Shown here: positions 12,143 through 55,725 of the stretch, piece by piece
Position numbering within the stretch: the first letter of the stretch is position 1
Layout: the number at the start of each line of letters is the position of its first letter
Assembly (NCBI GenBank): GCA_040756035.1
Contig: JBFLZV010000005.1
Coordinates: 147-64,146 of the forward strand
Reading direction: 5' to 3'
Source of the DNA: Pseudomonadota bacterium
Lineage (GTDB): Bacteria; Pseudomonadota; Gammaproteobacteria; SURF-13
DNA length: 64,000 nt
Notes under the pieces: generated by a model
Database searches by the model: none
What the model saw: only the letters and a program-made list of their open reading frames with translations
Told to the model about the DNA's origin: nothing
Made by a program: the position numbers and the translations under genes

Positions 12143-12288
12143 TATTAACCCGGCGGGATGTATTGCGGGGTTGAGCAAGGCACGGATGCCCTGACGCGGC
12201 CTTAAGCCGCGCGAGACCAGGCCGGGCATGTACCGGCCTGGGCGGCGGCGATAAACTATATGGATATAGTTTATCGCCGAGTTAATAG
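12143..12288 (-). repeat. MITE-like structured repeat, family 2, copy 2 (inverted orientation)
   Basis: The reverse complement matches copy 1/3 modules: CCAGGCCGGGCATGTACCGGCCTGG, GCGGCCTTAAGCCGC, TAAACTATATGGATATAGTTTATCGCC. Lies in the promoter region of fmdB. Confidence 0.6.
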
Positions 12289-15203: not shown

Positions 15204-15223
15204 GGCCGCCCCCACGCTTGCTA

Positions 15224-15254
15224 TATGACCATAGTCATATTATTATGGTCATAT
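15224..15254. promoter_or_regulatory. perfect inverted repeat ATATGACCATA-N9-TATGGTCATAT: putative operator/promoter of the Phd-VapC pair
   Basis: 11-bp arms located 20-50 bp upstream of the antitoxin start. Type II TA operons are typically autoregulated at such palindromes. Confidence 0.4.
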
Positions 15255-15274
15255 TTGCAGAGGAGGGTGAACCA

Positions 15275-15499
15275 GTGAAGATACCCGCCGGGCAATTCAA
15301 GGCGCGCTGCCTGAAGCTCATGGAGGAGGTGCGCCTGCGCCGCGCCGAGATCATCATTACCAAGCATGGAAAGCCGGTCGCTAAGCTGGTACCCGCGGAA
15401 GAGCGCGCCGCGCCGCTGCTGGGCTTTTTGAAAGGCACGGTCGATATCAAGGGCGACATCGTGAAGCCCGTCGGCGAGGCATGGGAAGCCGATGGCTAA
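15275..15499 (+). CDS. type II antitoxin, Phd/YefM family
   Basis: GTG start with AGGAGGG RBS at 15261-15267. IPAGQFKARCLKLMEEVRLRRAEIIITKHGKPVAKLVP matches the Phd/YefM fold. Overlaps the toxin start by 8 nt. Confidence 0.6.
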   Translation: MKIPAGQFKARCLKLMEEVRLRRAEIIITKHGKPVAKLVPAEERAAPLLGFLKGTVDIKGDIVKPVGEAWEADG

Positions 15500-15920
15500 G
15501 ACCATCCCGTTGCTGCTCGACACCCACGCCTGGGTGTGGCTCATGAATGGCGACGAGGATAAGTTTTCCGCGGCCAGCCGCAAGATAATTCAGCATGCCG
15601 GTCAACGGGGCCTGCTGCGCGTATCTATTTTATCGGTGTGGGAAGTGGGCATGCTGGAGTCCAAGGGCCGCTTGAAATTTTCGCGGCCCTGTCTGGATTG
15701 GATCAATGCCGCGCTGTCCGCACCGGGCATAGCACTCGCACCGCTCGAGCCGCAGGCGGCCGTCGAAAGCAGCCGCTTGCCCGGCAGCTTTCACGGCGAC
15801 CCGGTGGACCGGATGCTGGTCGCTACGGCGCGACACCTCGGCGCGACGCTGCTCACGCAAGATGATAAGATTATCCGCTACGGCAAACAGCATTCCGTGT
15901 CGGTCATGACTTTGAGCTAG
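15492..15920 (+). CDS. type II toxin, PIN-domain VapC family
   Basis: 142 aa. LLLDTHAWVWL N-terminal acidic-pocket motif, conserved D residues, translational coupling to the antitoxin. Confidence 0.7.
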   Translation: MAKTIPLLLDTHAWVWLMNGDEDKFSAASRKIIQHAGQRGLLRVSILSVWEVGMLESKGRLKFSRPCLDWINAALSAPGIALAPLEPQAAVESSRLPGSFHGDPVDRMLVATARHLGATLLTQDDKIIRYGKQHSVSVMTLS

Positions 15921-17945: not shown

Positions 17946-18075
17946 CGCCCATGAAATTTTCAGAGACGAAAGAACAAAAAATATGATTTTTTTCTTAATT
18001 TTCAATTTTTTATGTAATTGAAAAATGGCGATGCATCCCTGCATCGCAGGAATCTCTGAGTAACTCAGAGATTCC
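17946..18075. repeat. Modular palindromic intergenic element, family 1, copy B
   Basis: Modules P5 (half)-P4-P3-P2-P1: GCGATGCATCCCTGCATCGCAGG hairpin and GGAATCTCTGAGTAACTCAGAGATTCC 27-bp palindrome. Abuts the CBS gene stop. Confidence 0.6.
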
Positions 18076-18699
18076 TTACGAAGCAATCAGCCGGCGCTCG
18101 ATTTGATCCTCCATCAATACAGCCTCCAACTCAGCGAAGCTTTGCACCTTGCCGGAAGGCTGGATGTCCACGCCGAGTTGTTTGCCGATTTGCGTGGTGG
18201 AGAATATGCCGCGGATGACGTGTTCGCCGCCGCGCGGATTTTCCAGCACCAGGGCGTGCTGGCGCCCCGCCTCTTTGAGGGTGAGGATAATATCACCCAC
18301 ACTGGCGTGCAAGACGTCGTCGATGTGCAGCGCTTGTATTTTTTCATTCGGCGTCATGACGTGCTCGACCAGTAAATCCTCGCGGCGTATGCGCGTGCGC
18401 GCCAGATAGTGCACCGGTTTCTCGCCGAGGATGTCGCGCGCGGTAATGACGCCGAGCACATTGTCTTCGTTATCGGTCACCAGCAGCAACCGCACCTCGG
18501 CGTGGATCATTTTCTGCAAGGCCGTATCCATGGCGGCGTCGGGTCTGATGGTGACCGCCTTGACGCGCTTCAGGTCGGTCATAACGTCGAGCGCGGAGCT
18601 GTTAGGTTTTACTCTCTCCGGCAGGCCTTGTCCGTAGCGGCAAAACGAGGTGCCGGTGCGCAGGGTGTAAGAAGGGAGCGCTTTATATGACATAGCCAT
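18076..18699 (-). CDS. CBS-domain pair protein
   Basis: 207 aa. Two CBS motifs (DVMTDLKRVKAVTIRPDAAMDTALQKMIHAEVRLLLVTD..., VEHVMTPNEKIQALHIDDVLHASVGDIILTLKEAGRQHALVL). Confidence 0.7.
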   Translation of the reverse strand: MAMSYKALPSYTLRTGTSFCRYGQGLPERVKPNSSALDVMTDLKRVKAVTIRPDAAMDTALQKMIHAEVRLLLVTDNEDNVLGVITARDILGEKPVHYLARTRIRREDLLVEHVMTPNEKIQALHIDDVLHASVGDIILTLKEAGRQHALVLENPRGGEHVIRGIFSTTQIGKQLGVDIQPSGKVQSFAELEAVLMEDQIERRLIAS

Positions 18700-20883: not shown

Positions 20884-20936
20884 CGCGCGGTGGTTGGGCC
20901 GTGCGCAACACGATGCTACACTATATTATTAGATAA

Positions 20937-21087
20937 GGAATCTCTGATTTATTCAGAGATTCCTGCGCTACAGGGATGTAGCGCCATTTTTCAAATACGT
21001 AAGTATTTGAAAAATGAAGAAAAGCAAAAATCACATTTTTGCTTTTCGTGCTCTGATAATTCCTGGATGGAATTATTCAGAGTTTCC
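20937..21087. repeat. Modular palindromic intergenic element, family 1, copy C (full length: P1-P2-P3-P4-P5)
   Basis: GGAATCTCTGATTTATTCAGAGATTCC, GCGCTACAGGGATGTAGCGC, TTTTCAAATACGTAAGTATTTGAAAA, GAAAAGCAAAAATCACATTTTTGCTTTTC, GCTCTGATAATTCCTGGATGGAATTATTCAGAG: five consecutive hairpins. Confidence 0.65.
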
Positions 21088-21116: not shown

Positions 21117-21863
21117 ATGGCAGGTCATAGCAAATGGGCCAATATTCAGCATCGCAAGGGCGCGCAAGACGCCAAGCGCGGCAAGATTTTCACCAAGCTG
21201 ATCCGTGAGATCACCGTCGCCGCGCGCATGCAGGGGGCCGATCCGAAGACCAACCCGCGCCTGCGCGCCGCTATCGACAAAGCCCTCGACAATAACATGA
21301 CGCGCGACACCATCGAGCGCGCCATCAAACGCGGCGCGGGCGCGCTGGAAGGCAGCCACTACGAAGAAGTGCGCTACGAAGGCTACGGGCCGGGCGGCGC
21401 GGCGGTCATGGTGGACTGCATGACCGACAATCACGTGCGCACCGTGGCCGAGGTGCGCCACGCTTTCACCAAGTGCGGCGGCAACATGGGCACCGACGGC
21501 TCGGTGGCCTATCTATTCAGCAAGGTCGGCGTGCTGAGTTACGCGCCGGGCAGCGACGAAGACAAAATCATGGAGGTGGCGCTGGAGGCCGGCGCGCAGG
21601 ACGTCGTCAGCAACGATGACGGCTCCATTGACGTGCTCACCGCGCCGGAGGATTTTGCCGCCGTCAAACAGGCCATGCTCGACGCCGACCTGGAACCGGA
21701 ACAAGCCGAACTTACCATGCGCGCCGCCACCAATGTTAAATTGAGCGGCGATGATGCGCTGAAAATGCTGAAGCTGCTGGACATGCTGGAAGATTTGGAC
21801 GATGTGCAGAACGTCTACTCCAACGCGGACATCGACGAAGAGGTAGTCGCCCAAGCGGTATAG
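21117..21863 (+). CDS. yebC: YebC/PmpR-family transcriptional regulator
   Basis: 248 aa. [32 protein letters not shown] canonical N-terminus. Conserved yebC-ruvCAB order. Confidence 0.9.
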
Positions 21864-21874
21864 GGCACCTTCAC

Positions 21875-22399
21875 GTGGCGCAGAGCTTACGCATACTTGG
21901 CATCGACCCCGGCTCGCTCATCACCGGCTTCGGCGTCATCGACGTCAACGGCCACGCCGCCGAGTATGTCGCCAGCGGCTGCGTGCGCATTACGCAGGAG
22001 GCGCTGGCCGATCGCTTAAAAGTCATTTTCGAGGGCGTGCAGGAATTGCTGGCGACCTACCAACCCGCGGAAATAGTCGTTGAACGCGTGTTCCTGCACC
22101 GCAACGCCGACTCGGCGCTCAAACTCGGTCAGGCGCGCGGCGCCGCGATCTGCGCCGCCGCCGTGCAATCCCTGCCGCTGCACGAATACACACCCGCGCA
22201 AATCAAGCAGGCCATCGTCGGCAAGGGTAACGCCGGCAAGGAACAAGTTCAGCACATGGTGAAGATATTGCTCAAGCTGCCCGCCGCGCCGCAGGCCGAC
22301 GCCGCGGACGCGCTGGCCGTGGCGCTGTGCCACTGCCACACGCGCCAGTTGCTCGGTCAGACGGGCGGCGTAGCTTGGCGCAAGGGGCGCACGCGATGA
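21875..22399 (+). CDS. ruvC: crossover junction endodeoxyribonuclease RuvC
   Basis: GTG start. [17 protein letters not shown] (catalytic Asp), EIVVERVF. Confidence 0.9.
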
Positions 22400-23016
22400 T
22401 CGGTCGCCTGCACGGCACCTTGCTGGCGCGCCAGGCGCCGTATTTATTGATCGACGTACACGGCGTGGGCTACGAAGTCGAAGCGCCCATGACCACCTTC
22501 TACGAATTGCCCGCGGTCGGCGCGCAAGTGACCCTGTACACGCATCTCGTGGTGCGCGATGATGCGCACTTATTATACGGTTTCGCCGCCGAATCCGAGC
22601 GCGCGCTGTTCCGCAGCCTTATCAAAGTGAGCGGCGTCGGCGCCAAGCTGGCGCTGACCATCTTGTCCGGCATGTCGGCGGCGGGCTTCGCGCGCTGCGT
22701 GCAACACAACGACAGCGCCAGCCTCACGCGCTTGCCCGGCATCGGCAAAAAAACCGCCGAGCGGTTGATACTGGAAATGCGCGATCGCCTGGCCGATTGG
22801 CAAACCGGCCACGGCGCGGCGCTGCCCGGCGCGCCCGCGCTCGCCGCGGGTCCCGGCGATGCATCGAGCGATGCGATCAGCGCCCTGGTGGCGCTCGGCT
22901 ACAAGCCGCAAGAGGCGAGCCGCATGGTGCACGGTATCGACGCCGAGGGTCTGTCCAGCGAACAAATCATCCGCCGGGCGCTACAATCCTTGGTTAAAGA
23001 AGCGCCGGTGAAATAA
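22396..23016 (+). CDS. ruvA: Holliday junction branch migration protein RuvA
   Basis: [28 protein letters not shown]; HhH motifs [13 protein letters not shown] and [19 protein letters not shown] overlap with ruvC. Confidence 0.9.
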
Positions 23017-23024
23017 CGCTGGAT

Positions 23025-23060
23025 ACGTACGTACATATTTTGTAAAATATGTACGTACGT
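23025..23060. promoter_or_regulatory. perfect 17-bp inverted repeat ACGTACGTACATATTTT-gt-AAAATATGTACGTACGT: putative operator of the inserted TA pair
   Basis: Located immediately after the ruvA stop and 15 bp before the antitoxin RBS (GAGGA). Confidence 0.45.
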
Positions 23061-23074
23061 ATGAGGATGATGTT

Positions 23075-23350
23075 ATGAAAACCGCAAGTGGAAAAAAAAC
23101 CTCGGGCAAGCGCGCGGCGAAAAAGTACACCGCCACGCAACTGCGCCAGGAGATTTATAAAGTGCTCGACACCGTACTGGAAACCGGCGTGCCGGTGGAG
23201 GTGGAGAGGCGCGGGCGGGCACTGAGGATCAGCGCCGTCGAAGCGCCGGACAAGCTCGACCGGCTGGCGCCGCACCCGGACTATATCGTCGGTGATCCGG
23301 AAGAGTTGGTGCATCTAGATTGGTCGGCGAAGTGGCGTCCGTATGTGTAA
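23075..23350 (+). CDS. type II antitoxin (Phd/YefM-like) with basic N-terminal tail
   Basis: 91 aa. TATQLRQEIYKVLDTVLETGVPVEVERRGRALRI resembles the Phd/YefM fold. Precedes a PIN toxin by 12 nt. Confidence 0.55.
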   Translation: MKTASGKKTSGKRAAKKYTATQLRQEIYKVLDTVLETGVPVEVERRGRALRISAVEAPDKLDRLAPHPDYIVGDPEELVHLDWSAKWRPYV

Positions 23351-23362
23351 GCCGCCGAGCGC

Positions 23363-23737
23363 ATGATTTATCTCGACACGCATGTGGTCGCGTGGCTCTA
23401 TCAGGGCGCGCGGGCGCAGTTCAGCAAGCGCGCGCAGGCGCTCATCGCCGATAACGCGCTGAGCATATCGCCCATGGTGGTGTTGGAGTTGGACTATTTA
23501 TATGAGACGAAGCGTGTGCGCGAACCCGCCGCGCGGGTCCTGCGCCATTTGCAAAGACAGCTGGCCTTGTCGATTTGCGATAAACCGTTTGCGGACATTG
23601 TCGCCGCGGCGCACTATTGCGCGTGGACGCGCGACCCCTTCGACCGCCTGATCGTGGCGCACGCGAGCCTGGAAGAAAACACCTTGTTAACAAAAGATAA
23701 AGCGATCCACGCTCACTATCGCGCCGCCGTGTGGTAG
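23363..23737 (+). CDS. PIN-domain toxin (VapC-like)
   Basis: 124 aa. [13 protein letters not shown]-terminus with conserved Asp, [13 protein letters not shown]-terminal PIN motif. Confidence 0.65.
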
Positions 23738-23751
23738 TTTGTGAGGTGCCC

Positions 23752-24816
23752 ATGATACAGAGTGACCGCTTAATTGCCCCACAAAGCCAATCGTGCGAGG
23801 ACGAGGTGATCGAGCACAACGTGCGTCCGGCGCGGCTCGCCGATTACGTGGGCCAGGCCGCGGTGCGCGAGCAGATGGAAATTTTCATCGCCGCCGCCAA
23901 GAGCCGCCGCGAGGCGCTCGACCACGTGCTCATCTTCGGCCCGCCGGGACTCGGCAAGACCACGCTCGCGCACATCATCGCGCACGAACTGGGCGTGAAC
24001 ATCAAATCCACTTCCGGCCCGGTGCTGGAGCGTGCCGGCGATCTCGCGGCGCTGCTCACCAATCTGGAGCCGCACGACGTACTGTTCGTCGACGAGATTC
24101 ACCGCTTGAGTCCGGTGGTGGAGGAGGTGCTGTACCCGGCTCTGGAAGATTACCAACTCGACATCATGATCGGCGAAGGTCCGGCGGCGCGCTCCATCAA
24201 GCTCGACCTGCCACCGTTCACGCTGGTCGGCGCCACCACGCGCGCGGGCCTGCTTACTTCGCCGCTGCGCGACCGTTTCGGCATCGTGCAGCGTTTGGAG
24301 TTTTATTCGACCGAGGAATTGTGTCGCATCGTGAGTCGCTCGGCGCATATCCTGGACGTGAGCATCGACGCGGAAGGCGCCGAGCGCATCGCCGGCCGCT
24401 CGCGCGGCACGCCGCGCATCGCCAATCGCCTATTGCGCCGCGTGCGCGATTACGCGCAGGTGCGCGCCGATGGGCGCGTCACGCGCGACATCGCGGAGCG
24501 CGCGTTGGACATTCTGGACGTGGACAGCAACGGCTTCGACATGATGGACCGCAAACTGCTGCTCGCGGTCATCCAAAAATTCGACGGCGGGCCGGTGGGC
24601 ATCGACAATCTGGCGGCGGCCATCGGCGAAGAGCGCGGCACCATCGAGGACGTGCTGGAACCGTTTCTGATTCAGCAGGGTTTTCTCATGCGCACCCCGC
24701 GCGGACGGCAGGCTACGCGCGCCGCCTACGCGCACTTCGGCCTGCCTTGTCCGAAACTCGATGCCGCCCTGTCGGAAACCGCTCTGCAGCAGACGTTGTT
24801 CGGCGAAAAAGAATAA
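23752..24816 (+). CDS. ruvB: Holliday junction ATP-dependent DNA helicase RuvB
   Basis: Start ATG 23752 (GAGGTG RBS). Walker [10 protein letters not shown], Walker [10 protein letters not shown], sensor residues. The ORF-track start 23731 is an in-frame extension. Confidence 0.95.
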
Positions 24817-24935
24817 ATTGAATTTCGCGTGGCAAGGAATTTTTTGCAATACTCGCAGTCTACGGGGAATACGCACGGGCGGACTTGATCCGGTGTTATT
24901 AAAATGAAAGAATCCCCGCTGCCTGAAAAACTTCC

Positions 24936-25346
24936 ATGAAAGAATTCATCTGGCCGGTGCGCGTCTATTACGAAGACACCGACAGCGGCGGCGTCGTGTA
25001 TTACGCCAACTATCTCAAATTCATGGAGCGCGCGCGCAGCGAATGGCTGCGCAGCCTCGGCTTCGAGCAGGATGAACTGGCGCGCAGCCTCGGCGTGCTG
25101 TTCGTGGTGCGCGCGGTAACGATGAATTTTTGCAAGCCGGGGCGCTTTAATGAATTACTGAACGTCAGCGTCAAAGTCGCGGAGCGCGGCAAGGCCACAT
25201 TGAGTTTCGAGCAGAACGTAATGAATAGTATGGATAACGCCGTGTTGTGCAGCGGGCGCGTCAAGCTGGCCTGCGTCGACGCCGCCACCTGGAACCCGCG
25301 GCCCGTGCCCGCCCCCATCCTCACGGAGATTTCTCGTGACCACTGA
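24936..25346 (+). CDS. ybgC: tol-pal system-associated acyl-CoA thioesterase
   Basis: 136 aa. Hotdog fold, YYEDTDSGGVVYYANYLKF motif. Immediately upstream of tolQ. Confidence 0.85.
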   Translation: MKEFIWPVRVYYEDTDSGGVVYYANYLKFMERARSEWLRSLGFEQDELARSLGVLFVVRAVTMNFCKPGRFNELLNVSVKVAERGKATLSFEQNVMNSMDNAVLCSGRVKLACVDAATWNPRPVPAPILTEISRDH

Positions 25347-32141: not shown

Positions 32142-32217
32142 GGGCCGTTAGCTCAGCCGGTAGAGCAGCAGACTTTTAATCTGTTGGTCGTGCGTTCGAT
32201 CCGCACACGGCCCACCA
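32142..32217 (+). tRNA. tRNA-Lys (anticodon UUU)
   Basis: GGGCCGTTAGCTCAGCCGGTAGAGCAGCAGACTTTTAATCTGTTGGTCGTGCGTTCGATCCGCACACGGCCCACCA. 7-bp acceptor stem GGGCCGT/ACGGCCC, D arm, anticodon loop CTTTTAA, T-loop GTTCGATCC, encoded CCA. Confidence 0.9.
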
Positions 32218-45618: not shown

Positions 45619-45764
45619 TTATTAACTCGGCGACAAAATATATCCCTATATTTTGTCGCCCTCGACCAGGCGGTACCTGCCCGGCCTGGTCTCGCGCGGC
45701 TTAAGGCCGCGTCAAGGCATCCGTGCCTTGCTCAACCCGGCAATAAATCCCGCCTGGTTAATAT
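45619..45764 (+). repeat. MITE-like structured repeat, family 2, copy 3
   Basis: TTATTAACTCGGCGACAAAATATATCCCTATATTTTGTCGCC, CCAGGCGGTACCTGCCCGGCCTGG, GCGGCTTAAGGCCGC, terminal CGCCTGGTTAATA. Sits between the GH gene start and the wzx stop. Confidence 0.6.
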
Positions 45765-55574: not shown

Positions 55575-55725
55575 GGAAACTCTGAAAATTCCATCCATGG
55601 AATTTTCAGAGACGAAAAACGAAAATGTGTTTTCGTTTCTCTTCATTTTTCAATCGCCCGAAGCGATTGAAAAATAGCGATGCATCCCTGCGCTGCAAAA
55701 TCTCTGAATAAATTCAGAGATTTCC
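55575..55725. repeat. Modular palindromic intergenic element, family 1, copy D (P5-P4-P3-P2-P1, inverted relative to copy C)
   Basis: CTCTGAAAATTCCATCCATGGAATTTTCAGAG perfect palindrome, GAAAAACGAAAATGTGTTTTCGTTTCTC, TTTTCAATCGCCCGAAGCGATTGAAAA, GCATCCCTGCGCTGCAA, AATCTCTGAATAAATTCAGAGATTTCC. Abuts the wzz stop. Confidence 0.65.

Follow-up and report, generated by a model that had tools for sequence, protein, structure and literature searches.

A conserved, predicted toxin-antitoxin cassette between ruvA and ruvB in two gammaproteobacterial lineages

What separates ruvA from ruvB in contig JBFLZV010000005.1 of the gammaproteobacterial genome assembly GCA_040756035.1? We analyzed a stretch of 64,000 nucleotides of this contig (positions 147 to 64,146, hereafter termed the 64-kb window, to which all coordinates refer), in which ruvA ends at position 23016 and ruvB starts at position 23752, with 735 nt in between. 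An insert of approximately 720 bp (~23017-23737, + strand) begins about 3 nt past the stop codon of ruvA. It contains two small, co-directional open reading frames (ORFs) that are separated by a gap of 12 nt: first the ORF of a 91 amino acid antitoxin having a Phd/YefM-fold N-terminal domain (23075-23350, + strand), and then the ORF of a 124 amino acid VapC-type PIN-domain protein (23363-23737, + strand; acidic residues D5, E42, D94 and D112). A preliminary description of the window, made from the DNA sequence alone, had reported a 720-bp cassette splitting ruvA and ruvB, and with small corrections to the positions all of its features are indeed found. The toxin-antitoxin cassette between the two genes is real, old and well conserved, and it is of an ordinary type in a slightly unusual place. 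We consider the overall picture, namely a type II toxin-antitoxin module consisting of a Phd-fold antitoxin and a PIN toxin, with the operator, the insertion and the regulation proposed below, to be likely. In what follows lineage A stands for the window sequence, lineage B for a second lineage that carries the cassette, and L001 for the closest relative that lacks it.

The PIN protein matches the family PF01850 over residues 2-117 with a score of 46.2 bits, compared to a cut-off of 23.6. An alignment of 55 homologues shows no variation at D5, D91, D94 and D112, and E42 is kept in at least 90% of the sequences; this corresponds to the acidic set of PIN domains. The AlphaFold2 model calculated from this alignment has a mean predicted local distance difference test (pLDDT) value of 96.3 and shows the alpha/beta/alpha fold of PIN domains. 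When the model is compared to the PDB using Foldseek, 26 hits are obtained at E ≤ 1e-3 (TM score 0.57-0.73), and the list of structural neighbours is led by the VapC proteins of Rickettsia felis, Shigella, Klebsiella, Mycobacterium and Haemophilus and also includes FitB. Identity to any solved VapC is 14-24%, and the single PDB hit on the sequence level is VapC26 of M. tuberculosis (E = 0.037). The PF01850 score, the acidic residues and the VapC neighbours bear out the earlier proposal of a PIN toxin, and, as modelled, the 124 amino acid protein is a VapC-type PIN ribonuclease toxin.

The AlphaFold2 model of the 91 amino acid protein has a pLDDT of ~80 in its core and shows the order beta-alpha-beta-beta-alpha. 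All Foldseek PDB hits on ranks 1-37 are Phd, YefM, RelJ and related antitoxins (root mean square deviation 1.1-2.5 Å over 36-44 residues, probability 0.87-1.0). Moreover, 42 out of 43 aligned relatives match PF02604, the Phd/YefM family, at E ≤ 0.01, the best of them at 1.1e-9. Direct sequence similarity to Phd is marginal (E 0.26-0.77). The preliminary description had called the protein Phd/YefM-like and had suggested checking whether its ORF fits an antitoxin fold; according to the model and to PF02604 it does, and the 91 amino acid protein is thus best described as a predicted antitoxin of the Phd/YefM fold. The members of its family are normally 72-77 amino acids long and share the C-terminal motif DPEELVHLDWSxEW, which, by analogy, we infer to be the toxin-binding tail. 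The window antitoxin has in addition a Lys/Arg-rich N-terminal extension, comprising residues 1-16 (23075-23122, MKTASGKKTSGKRAAK). The corresponding extension in lineage B (MKVANKAVPKQQAVKK, locus L081, 1287-1334) is poorly conserved in sequence but basic as well, and there is no alternative in-frame start in the extension, which therefore must be translated. Such a basic extension is found in the ruvAB-resident lineages A and B and is absent from nearly all other family members that were found.

Do the two proteins form a pair elsewhere? The PIN family is large, with 804 matches from many phyla in a search of 5.8 billion proteins. We examined 80 metagenomic loci with a PIN homologue (45-57% identity); 74 of them have an antitoxin homologue directly upstream, in most cases overlapping with the PIN gene or at a distance of no more than 30 nt. 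Three more homologous loci, which we inspected gene by gene, are situated between unrelated housekeeping genes and have no mobility genes nearby. The antitoxin-PIN pair is visible in two of the three; in the third one (L182) no PIN gene is called beside the antitoxin. The combination of a PIN toxin with a Phd-fold antitoxin is an established class, which accounts for ~22% of PIN toxin-antitoxin pairs (PMC5499597).

This distribution also bears on a different view of the PIN protein, according to which it is not a toxin but assists RuvAB in recombination as a structure-specific DNA nuclease. Activity on DNA flaps is known for some PIN-like nucleases, and the position between ruvA and ruvB is the sole point in the sequence that speaks for such a role. 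However, the homologues nearly always have a Phd-type partner, none of the 80 metagenomic loci is found beside ruvA, ruvB, ruvC, yebC or ybgC, and the three further loci lie in unrelated neighbourhoods. Moreover, the structural neighbours are VapC RNase toxins, and the gene is absent from L001, the closest relative. We therefore regard a recombination nuclease as very improbable.

The window contains a second, distantly related Phd/YefM and PIN pair (15218-15920, + strand), which is located between the stop codon of aspS (15203) and a nadA-like gene (15940). Its antitoxin scores 34 bits on PF02604 and likely has its true start at a GTG codon at 15276, and its PIN protein of 142 amino acids matches PF01850 with 52 bits and shares 26% identity with the ruvAB-resident PIN protein. 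Directly upstream of this pair is an own, different near-palindrome, ATATGACCATAGTCAT/ATTATTATGGTCATAT (inverted repeat 15223-15254).

Besides the two genes, the cassette contains a perfect inverted repeat of 40 bp (23023-23062), the longest one in the 64-kb window. It consists of two arms of 19 nt each, ATACGTACGTACATATTTT (23023-23041) and AAAATATGTACGTACGTAT (23044-23062), which are 100% complementary and flank a non-palindromic 2-nt centre, GT. In 20 composition-preserving block shuffles of the window the arms were never longer than 12 nt. The preliminary description had a perfect palindrome with 17-nt arms at this place; its presence is confirmed and its length is not, the 17-nt arms being contained within those of 19 nt. 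The repeat is followed by the Shine-Dalgarno sequence of the antitoxin gene (GAGGA, 23063-23067, + strand, as read from the sequence), 7 nt upstream of the ATG. Within the repeat there are two (ACGT)n boxes, TACGTACGTAC at 23024-23034 and GTACGTACGTA at 23051-23061. Each of them is self-complementary and has two GTAC cores that are 4 bp apart, which makes four cores in all. We surveyed the 100 nt upstream of 68 antitoxin genes of the family for such boxes, using 1761 windows of 100 nt from the same contigs as controls. (ACGT)n runs of at least 7 nt are present in 52 of the 68 upstream regions, compared to 6 of the 1761 control windows. Paired boxes are found in 28 of the 52 box-bearing regions, at distances of 18-27 nt from centre to centre and with a median near 22.

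The only sigma-70-like hit in the region 22300-24900, TGGATA-N17-TAAAAT (23020-23048, + strand; TGGATA at 23020-23025, TAAAAT at 23043-23048), overlaps the 40-bp dyad. In family members the predicted promoter likewise always overlaps or abuts the boxes, even if the exact geometry varies. Thus, the anatomy of autoregulation, a palindrome placed over the module's own promoter, is present at the level of the sequence. In lineage B the predicted promoter reads TGGACA-N17-TAAAAT. Promoter and operator of the two lineages align without gaps and around the same dyad centre, and 35 of 47 positions are identical, although synonymous sites between A and B are near saturation. Two pairs of the dyad have changed on both sides and are still complementary, whereas four end pairs are lost in B; the two-sided changes suggest that the dyad itself is conserved. 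Within each lineage the inverted repeat is invariant (7 and 10 contigs). In lineage B (L081 1221-1273) we also observe that the inverted repeat reaches outward past a bulge (ATGGA...TCCAT), so that some bases of the -35 hexamer are paired with the sequence that follows the right box.

Among the antitoxins with the same N-terminal DNA-binding fold whose operators have been defined experimentally are YefM of the YefM-YoeB system of E. coli and Phd of the Phd-Doc system of phage P1. The YefM operator has TGTACA palindromes 12 bp apart, the Phd operator has GTAC cores 13 bp apart, and in both systems, as here, two short palindromes with GTAC cores lie over the -10 region of the own promoter (PMC1802561). 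There are differences: the boxes of the window are (ACGT)n runs with two GTAC cores each, and their spacing is ~22 bp in the family, 27 bp in the window and 21 bp in lineage B, rather than 12-13 bp. The C-terminal toxin-binding motif of the window antitoxin differs as well, and the toxins of these systems are YoeB/RelE or Doc, whereas here it is a PIN domain. Since (ACGT)n boxes precede homologous antitoxin genes across the family and overlap the predicted promoter, the earlier suggestion that the palindrome is a toxin-antitoxin operator stands, and the repeat at 23023-23062 is very probably the operator of the module.

Could the palindrome instead act mainly on the level of RNA, as a hairpin at the 3' end of ruvA that serves as a weak terminator, a stabiliser or an RNase III site and thereby uncouples ruvA from the genes downstream? 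The repeat starts only 7 nt past the ruvA stop codon, and in read-through transcripts it folds into a hairpin with an 18-bp stem (~-23.5 kcal/mol, z = -6.5 compared to shuffled sequences). The hairpin of lineage B is stable too, and the two-sided pair changes suit RNA pairing as well as a DNA dyad. However, the stem is not followed by a U-tract, which is why we treat a role in RNA as a possible secondary function. Moreover, the (ACGT)n boxes also precede homologous antitoxin genes at dozens of loci whose contexts are unrelated, and in those other loci the spacer between the boxes is not self-complementary, so that no long hairpin would form there. Finally, the boxes overlap the predicted promoter, and GTAC cores are a known recognition element of the antitoxin fold (PMC1802561). 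Taken together, it is unlikely that the hairpin replaces the operator, and the two roles are in any case mutually compatible. Rfam searches of the window at gathering thresholds returned only a tRNA (32142-32214) and no known RNA element at the repeat. Control by the SOS response was considered and rejected, since there is no LexA box (CTGT-N8-ACAG) anywhere in the window.

Having described the module and its putative operator, we turn to the question of how the cassette came to lie in the ruv cluster. Relatives were collected by a RuvA scan using one genome per GTDB species, which yielded 80 loci (RuvA 57-78% identical), mostly from Thiohalomonadales, Thiohalophilus, Thiogranum and unclassified gammaproteobacterial metagenome-assembled genomes. 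None of the 80 encodes the antitoxin or the PIN protein. In L001, whose RuvA is 78% identical, the sequence from ruvA to ruvB is TAA-aactttgaggatgccgtc-TTG, and the two genes are only 18 nt apart, which shows that the cassette is an insertion. The leader of this empty site (TTTGAGGATGCC) resembles the 14 nt between the PIN stop codon and the ruvB ATG in the window (TTTGTGAGGTGCCC, 23738-23751, + strand; Shine-Dalgarno sequence GAGG at 23743-23746). By this resemblance, the right-hand end of the insert coincides with the PIN stop codon, and the 14 nt are the retained native ruvB leader.

The cassette is also found in lineage B, which is represented by 17 short contigs from the runs ERR112759xx and has the order ruvC-ruvA-antitoxin-PIN-ruvB. 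Compared to the window, its proteins are 73% (RuvC), 75% (RuvA), ~86% (RuvB), 74% (antitoxin) and 80% (PIN) identical. Synonymous divergence (dS) between the two lineages and the ratio of nonsynonymous to synonymous divergence (dN/dS), both calculated according to Nei-Gojobori, are 1.17 and 0.14 for the antitoxin gene and 1.29 and 0.08 for the PIN gene, as compared to 0.99 and 0.21 for ruvC, 0.96 and 0.16 for ruvA, and 0.51 and 0.18 for ruvB. Thus, the cassette has diverged along with its neighbours, under purifying selection that is at least as strong. The spacers are larger in lineage B than in the window (100 vs 58 nt between ruvA and the antitoxin gene, 37 vs 12 nt between the antitoxin and PIN genes, and 28 vs 14 nt between the PIN gene and ruvB), indicating that the window copy is the more compacted version. 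The cassette is present in each of the 14 contigs that encode the exact RuvA, so that among them there is no polymorphism for its presence or absence, and seven of these contigs come from seven different sequencing runs. In a tree of RuvC, RuvA and RuvB (599 columns) the window, lineage B and L001 form a clade in 200 of 200 bootstraps. The simplest history would be a single gain in the common ancestor of the window lineage and lineage B. Further lineages with the cassette were not recovered: the search of 5.8 billion proteins returned the exact match and one lineage at 80%, the next match being at most 60% identical, and a scan of metagenomes from JGI returned nothing above 57% and no hits near ruv genes.

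Does the insert resemble a mobile element? No transposase or integrase genes are found in or next to the cassette, and there are no terminal repeats, no target duplication and no repeats flanking 23017 and 23737; junction scars are absent from both cassette-bearing lineages. A target-site duplication was considered, since two leaders of the window, that of the antitoxin gene (TGAGGATG) and that of ruvB (TGAGGTG), look similar to the one at the empty site of L001. It was rejected because the operator lies upstream of the first copy and because the match is missing in lineage B; the similarity between GAGGATG and GAGGTG is explained by the Shine-Dalgarno consensus. The cassette also lacks the hallmarks of an insertion sequence, a transposon, an integron cassette or a genomic island, and membership in a defence system was dismissed, as PADLOC gave no hits.

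An assembly artefact, or a very recent insertion of a mobile element, might be suspected because the source appears to be a metagenome-assembled genome. However, the junction is identical in 14 contigs and the gene order is the same in the 17 contigs of lineage B, the GC content of the cassette (59-66%) is near that of the neighbouring genes, and there is no transposase or integrase, terminal repeat or target duplication. Both are effectively refuted, and we give them next to no credence. The preliminary description had presented the locus as an example of a toxin-antitoxin module integrating into the ruv operon, and had proposed to compare the junction in relatives for the presence of the cassette and for a target-site footprint. 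The insertion itself is supported by the empty site in L001 and by the 0 of 80 relatives with the cassette. A fresh event is not: the cassette is old and fixed in two diverged lineages without scars, and the comparison shows its presence in B and its absence from L001. That all relatives might share the same insertion without junction scars, which the description had named as a result that would speak against it, is not the case for the 80 sampled relatives, though lineage B shares it.

How unusual is an interrupted ruvA-ruvB junction in this group? For 78 of the 80 relatives the junction is informative. In 58 of them ruvA and ruvB lie within 200 nt of each other, in 15 they are 336-2531 nt apart, and in five there is no ruvB within 1.7-6 kb downstream. 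The earlier statement that ruvA and ruvB are almost universally adjacent is thus too strong for this clade, in which ~20 of 78 relatives (~26%) have other genes, or no ruvB, at the junction. The intervening genes are diverse. In Methylomarinum sp. (L055, OZ255706.1, 6569-7103) a HicB-like antitoxin (PF15919) and a HicA toxin (PF07927) are encoded between ruvA and ruvB. Thiogranum junctions contain an esterase and an alcohol dehydrogenase gene on the opposite strand as well as a DUF2007 gene, and other junctions contain genes for DUF3179, an EamA transporter (Endozoicomonas), a cold-shock protein, DUF2721, a phasin or a nitroreductase. Besides L055, the interrupted junctions include those of L032, L041, L045, L047, L066 and L051 (Thiogranum and relatives), L036 and L071, L064 and L079, L078, L060, L033, and L002, L008, L010 and L061. 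The nitroreductase gene follows ruvA in L002, L008 and L010; no ruvB is found within 6 kb downstream in L008, L010 and L061, nor within the 1.7 kb of sequence available in L002. The variety of these genes indicates that the junction is permissive in this gammaproteobacterial group. The HicAB pair of Methylomarinum sits at the same junction and on the same strand as the cassette of the window, but belongs to other families (HicB_lk_antitox, HicA_toxin), and is an unrelated type of toxin-antitoxin module that landed there independently. Our search of the literature did not turn up any description of a toxin-antitoxin module at the ruvA-ruvB junction.

From these data we propose the following scenario. 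The module, together with its own promoter and operator, would have been inserted into an 18-nt ruvA-ruvB spacer in an ancestor shared by at least two gammaproteobacterial lineages that are related to Thiohalomonadales, and would have been inherited vertically from then on. As in YefM-YoeB and Phd-Doc, antitoxin dimers, aided by bound toxin, would bind to both boxes, occlude the promoter and thus repress their own synthesis. The C-terminal tail of the antitoxin (DPEELVHLDW...) would wrap around the active site of the PIN protein and neutralise it, and loss of the labile antitoxin would free the RNase. The consequences for ruvB follow from the architecture of the junction. On the + strand of the region 22300-24900 no terminator-like sites are found, neither after ruvA nor after the PIN gene, so that an intrinsic terminator at either place was rejected, and there is no second promoter in the region. 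Since the PIN gene and ruvB are separated by just 14 nt that contain the native ribosome-binding site of ruvB and lack a terminator, ruvB would be read by two routes, namely by read-through from yebC-ruvC-ruvA and from the toxin-antitoxin promoter. The repressor bound to the operator, or the 18-bp RNA hairpin, could modulate the read-through route. We lean towards ruvB being co-transcribed with the cassette, and the proposed effects on its expression fit the anatomy of the locus.

Several points weigh against this picture and should be kept in mind. The antitoxin itself scores 25.5 bits on PF02604 (E = 1.1e-5), which is below the gathering score of 29.8, and the E-values of its Foldseek hits are 0.04 and above, owing to the shortness of the domain (~40 residues). 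Neither NCBIfam nor PADLOC has a match for the antitoxin or the PIN protein. As to the operator, the two boxes of the window are 27 nt apart, the upper extreme of the range seen in the family, the promoter calls are consensus matches only, and the covariation in the dyad comes from two sequences only. As to the history, the grouping of the window lineage and lineage B as sisters to the exclusion of L001 is recovered in only 121 of 200 bootstraps, and the cassette may have been gained earlier and then precisely lost in L001. Finally, toxicity, neutralisation, DNA binding and transcript structure are all features that we infer by analogy.

It is also conceivable that the module has been domesticated, in the sense that it is kept since its stress-responsive promoter and operator control ruvB, or since it stabilises the ruv locus, with the toxin activity being secondary. 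In line with this, the cassette occupies the same exact site in two lineages across a dS of ~1, the window copy is extremely compact and carries no spare DNA, a terminator is missing from the 14 nt in front of ruvB, and the basic N-terminal extension of the antitoxin is particular to the ruvAB-resident lineages. Yet, strong purifying selection acts on both proteins, including all catalytic residues of the PIN domain, as it does in a normal toxin-antitoxin pair, the cassette-free relatives presumably express ruvB without the cassette, and addictive retention would by itself be enough to explain its persistence. We thus consider domestication to be quite unlikely compared to an ordinary, vertically inherited toxin-antitoxin module. 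A broader proposal would combine two parts. Small self-regulated modules, such as Phd-PIN here, HicAB in Methylomarinum, and cspA, the phasin gene and others elsewhere, may land recurrently in the ruvA-ruvB spacer; in addition, the toxin-antitoxin promoter and operator may have been co-opted for ruvB, the N-terminal arm of the antitoxin being part of the adaptation. In the second part, the output of ruvB, the RuvA:RuvB ratio and Holliday-junction branch migration may be tied to the toxin:antitoxin state, in that ruvB may be de-repressed when the antitoxin is degraded under stress and may otherwise be blocked by the bound repressor. We hold this joint proposal to be speculative and improbable.

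The genes around the cassette are all found on the + strand. Upstream are yebC (21117-21863), ruvC (21875-22399) and ruvA (22396-23016; TIGR00084, 219 bits, with RuvA_N, HHH_5 and RuvA_C domains), whose start overlaps the ruvC stop codon. Downstream are ruvB (23752-24816; NF000868, 533 bits), ybgC (24936-25346) and tolQ (from 25336). In the AT-rich spacer upstream of yebC (20936-21047) three perfect hairpins follow one another, their arms being 12, 14 and 13 nt long. A nearly exact copy of the first motif (AGGAATCTCTGA...TCAGAGATTCCT) is found at 18048-18076, and palindromes of a related type (CTCTGA/TCAGAG) are present at 55580-55611, 55645-55675 and 55698-55723, so that this looks like a dispersed REP-like or terminator-like family. 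Two more long perfect inverted repeats of the window are located at 12246-12279 (CGGCGATAAACTATAT gg ATATAGTTTATCGCCG, 16-nt arms) and at 45629-45660 (GGCGACAAAATATA tccc TATATTTTGTCGCC, 14-nt arms).

How does the locus compare to known systems? With VapBC, as represented by VapC of Shigella and Salmonella, VapBC2 of Rickettsia felis and the VapCs of M. tuberculosis, it shares the PIN fold with its four conserved acidic residues and a small toxin encoded downstream of the antitoxin. The classical VapB antitoxins in the solved structures, in contrast, are of the AbrB or the ribbon-helix-helix type, whereas the antitoxin of the window is of the Phd type. With regard to its location, the cassette can be likened to the SpyCI chromosomal islands, which are reported to sit in the mutS-mutL operon of Streptococcus pyogenes (PMC4129442). 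In both cases a foreign element lies within a cluster of DNA repair genes, and SpyCI can alter the expression of the downstream repair gene. However, the SpyCI islands are large, excisable and phage-like and act as a reversible switch, whereas the element described here is a fixed 720-bp cassette that lacks mobility genes and shows no sign of excision. The pairing of Phd-fold antitoxins with PIN toxins and operators with GTAC cores are already known. What is mildly unusual is the conserved position inside the ruv cluster and the lineage-specific basic N-terminal arm of the antitoxin.

If the arrangement proposed here is right, the locus would be a natural and long-lived case of a repair gene, ruvB, that lies directly behind an autoregulated toxin-antitoxin promoter, and it could serve to examine if the expression of adjacent housekeeping genes is rewired by chromosomal toxin-antitoxin modules. 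Otherwise it would be one more chromosomal toxin-antitoxin module. As a by-product the analysis provides a testable operator motif, paired (ACGT)n boxes that are about two helical turns apart, for a Phd-PIN subfamily that is widespread and uncharacterised and for which there is neither a close solved structure nor an NCBIfam model.

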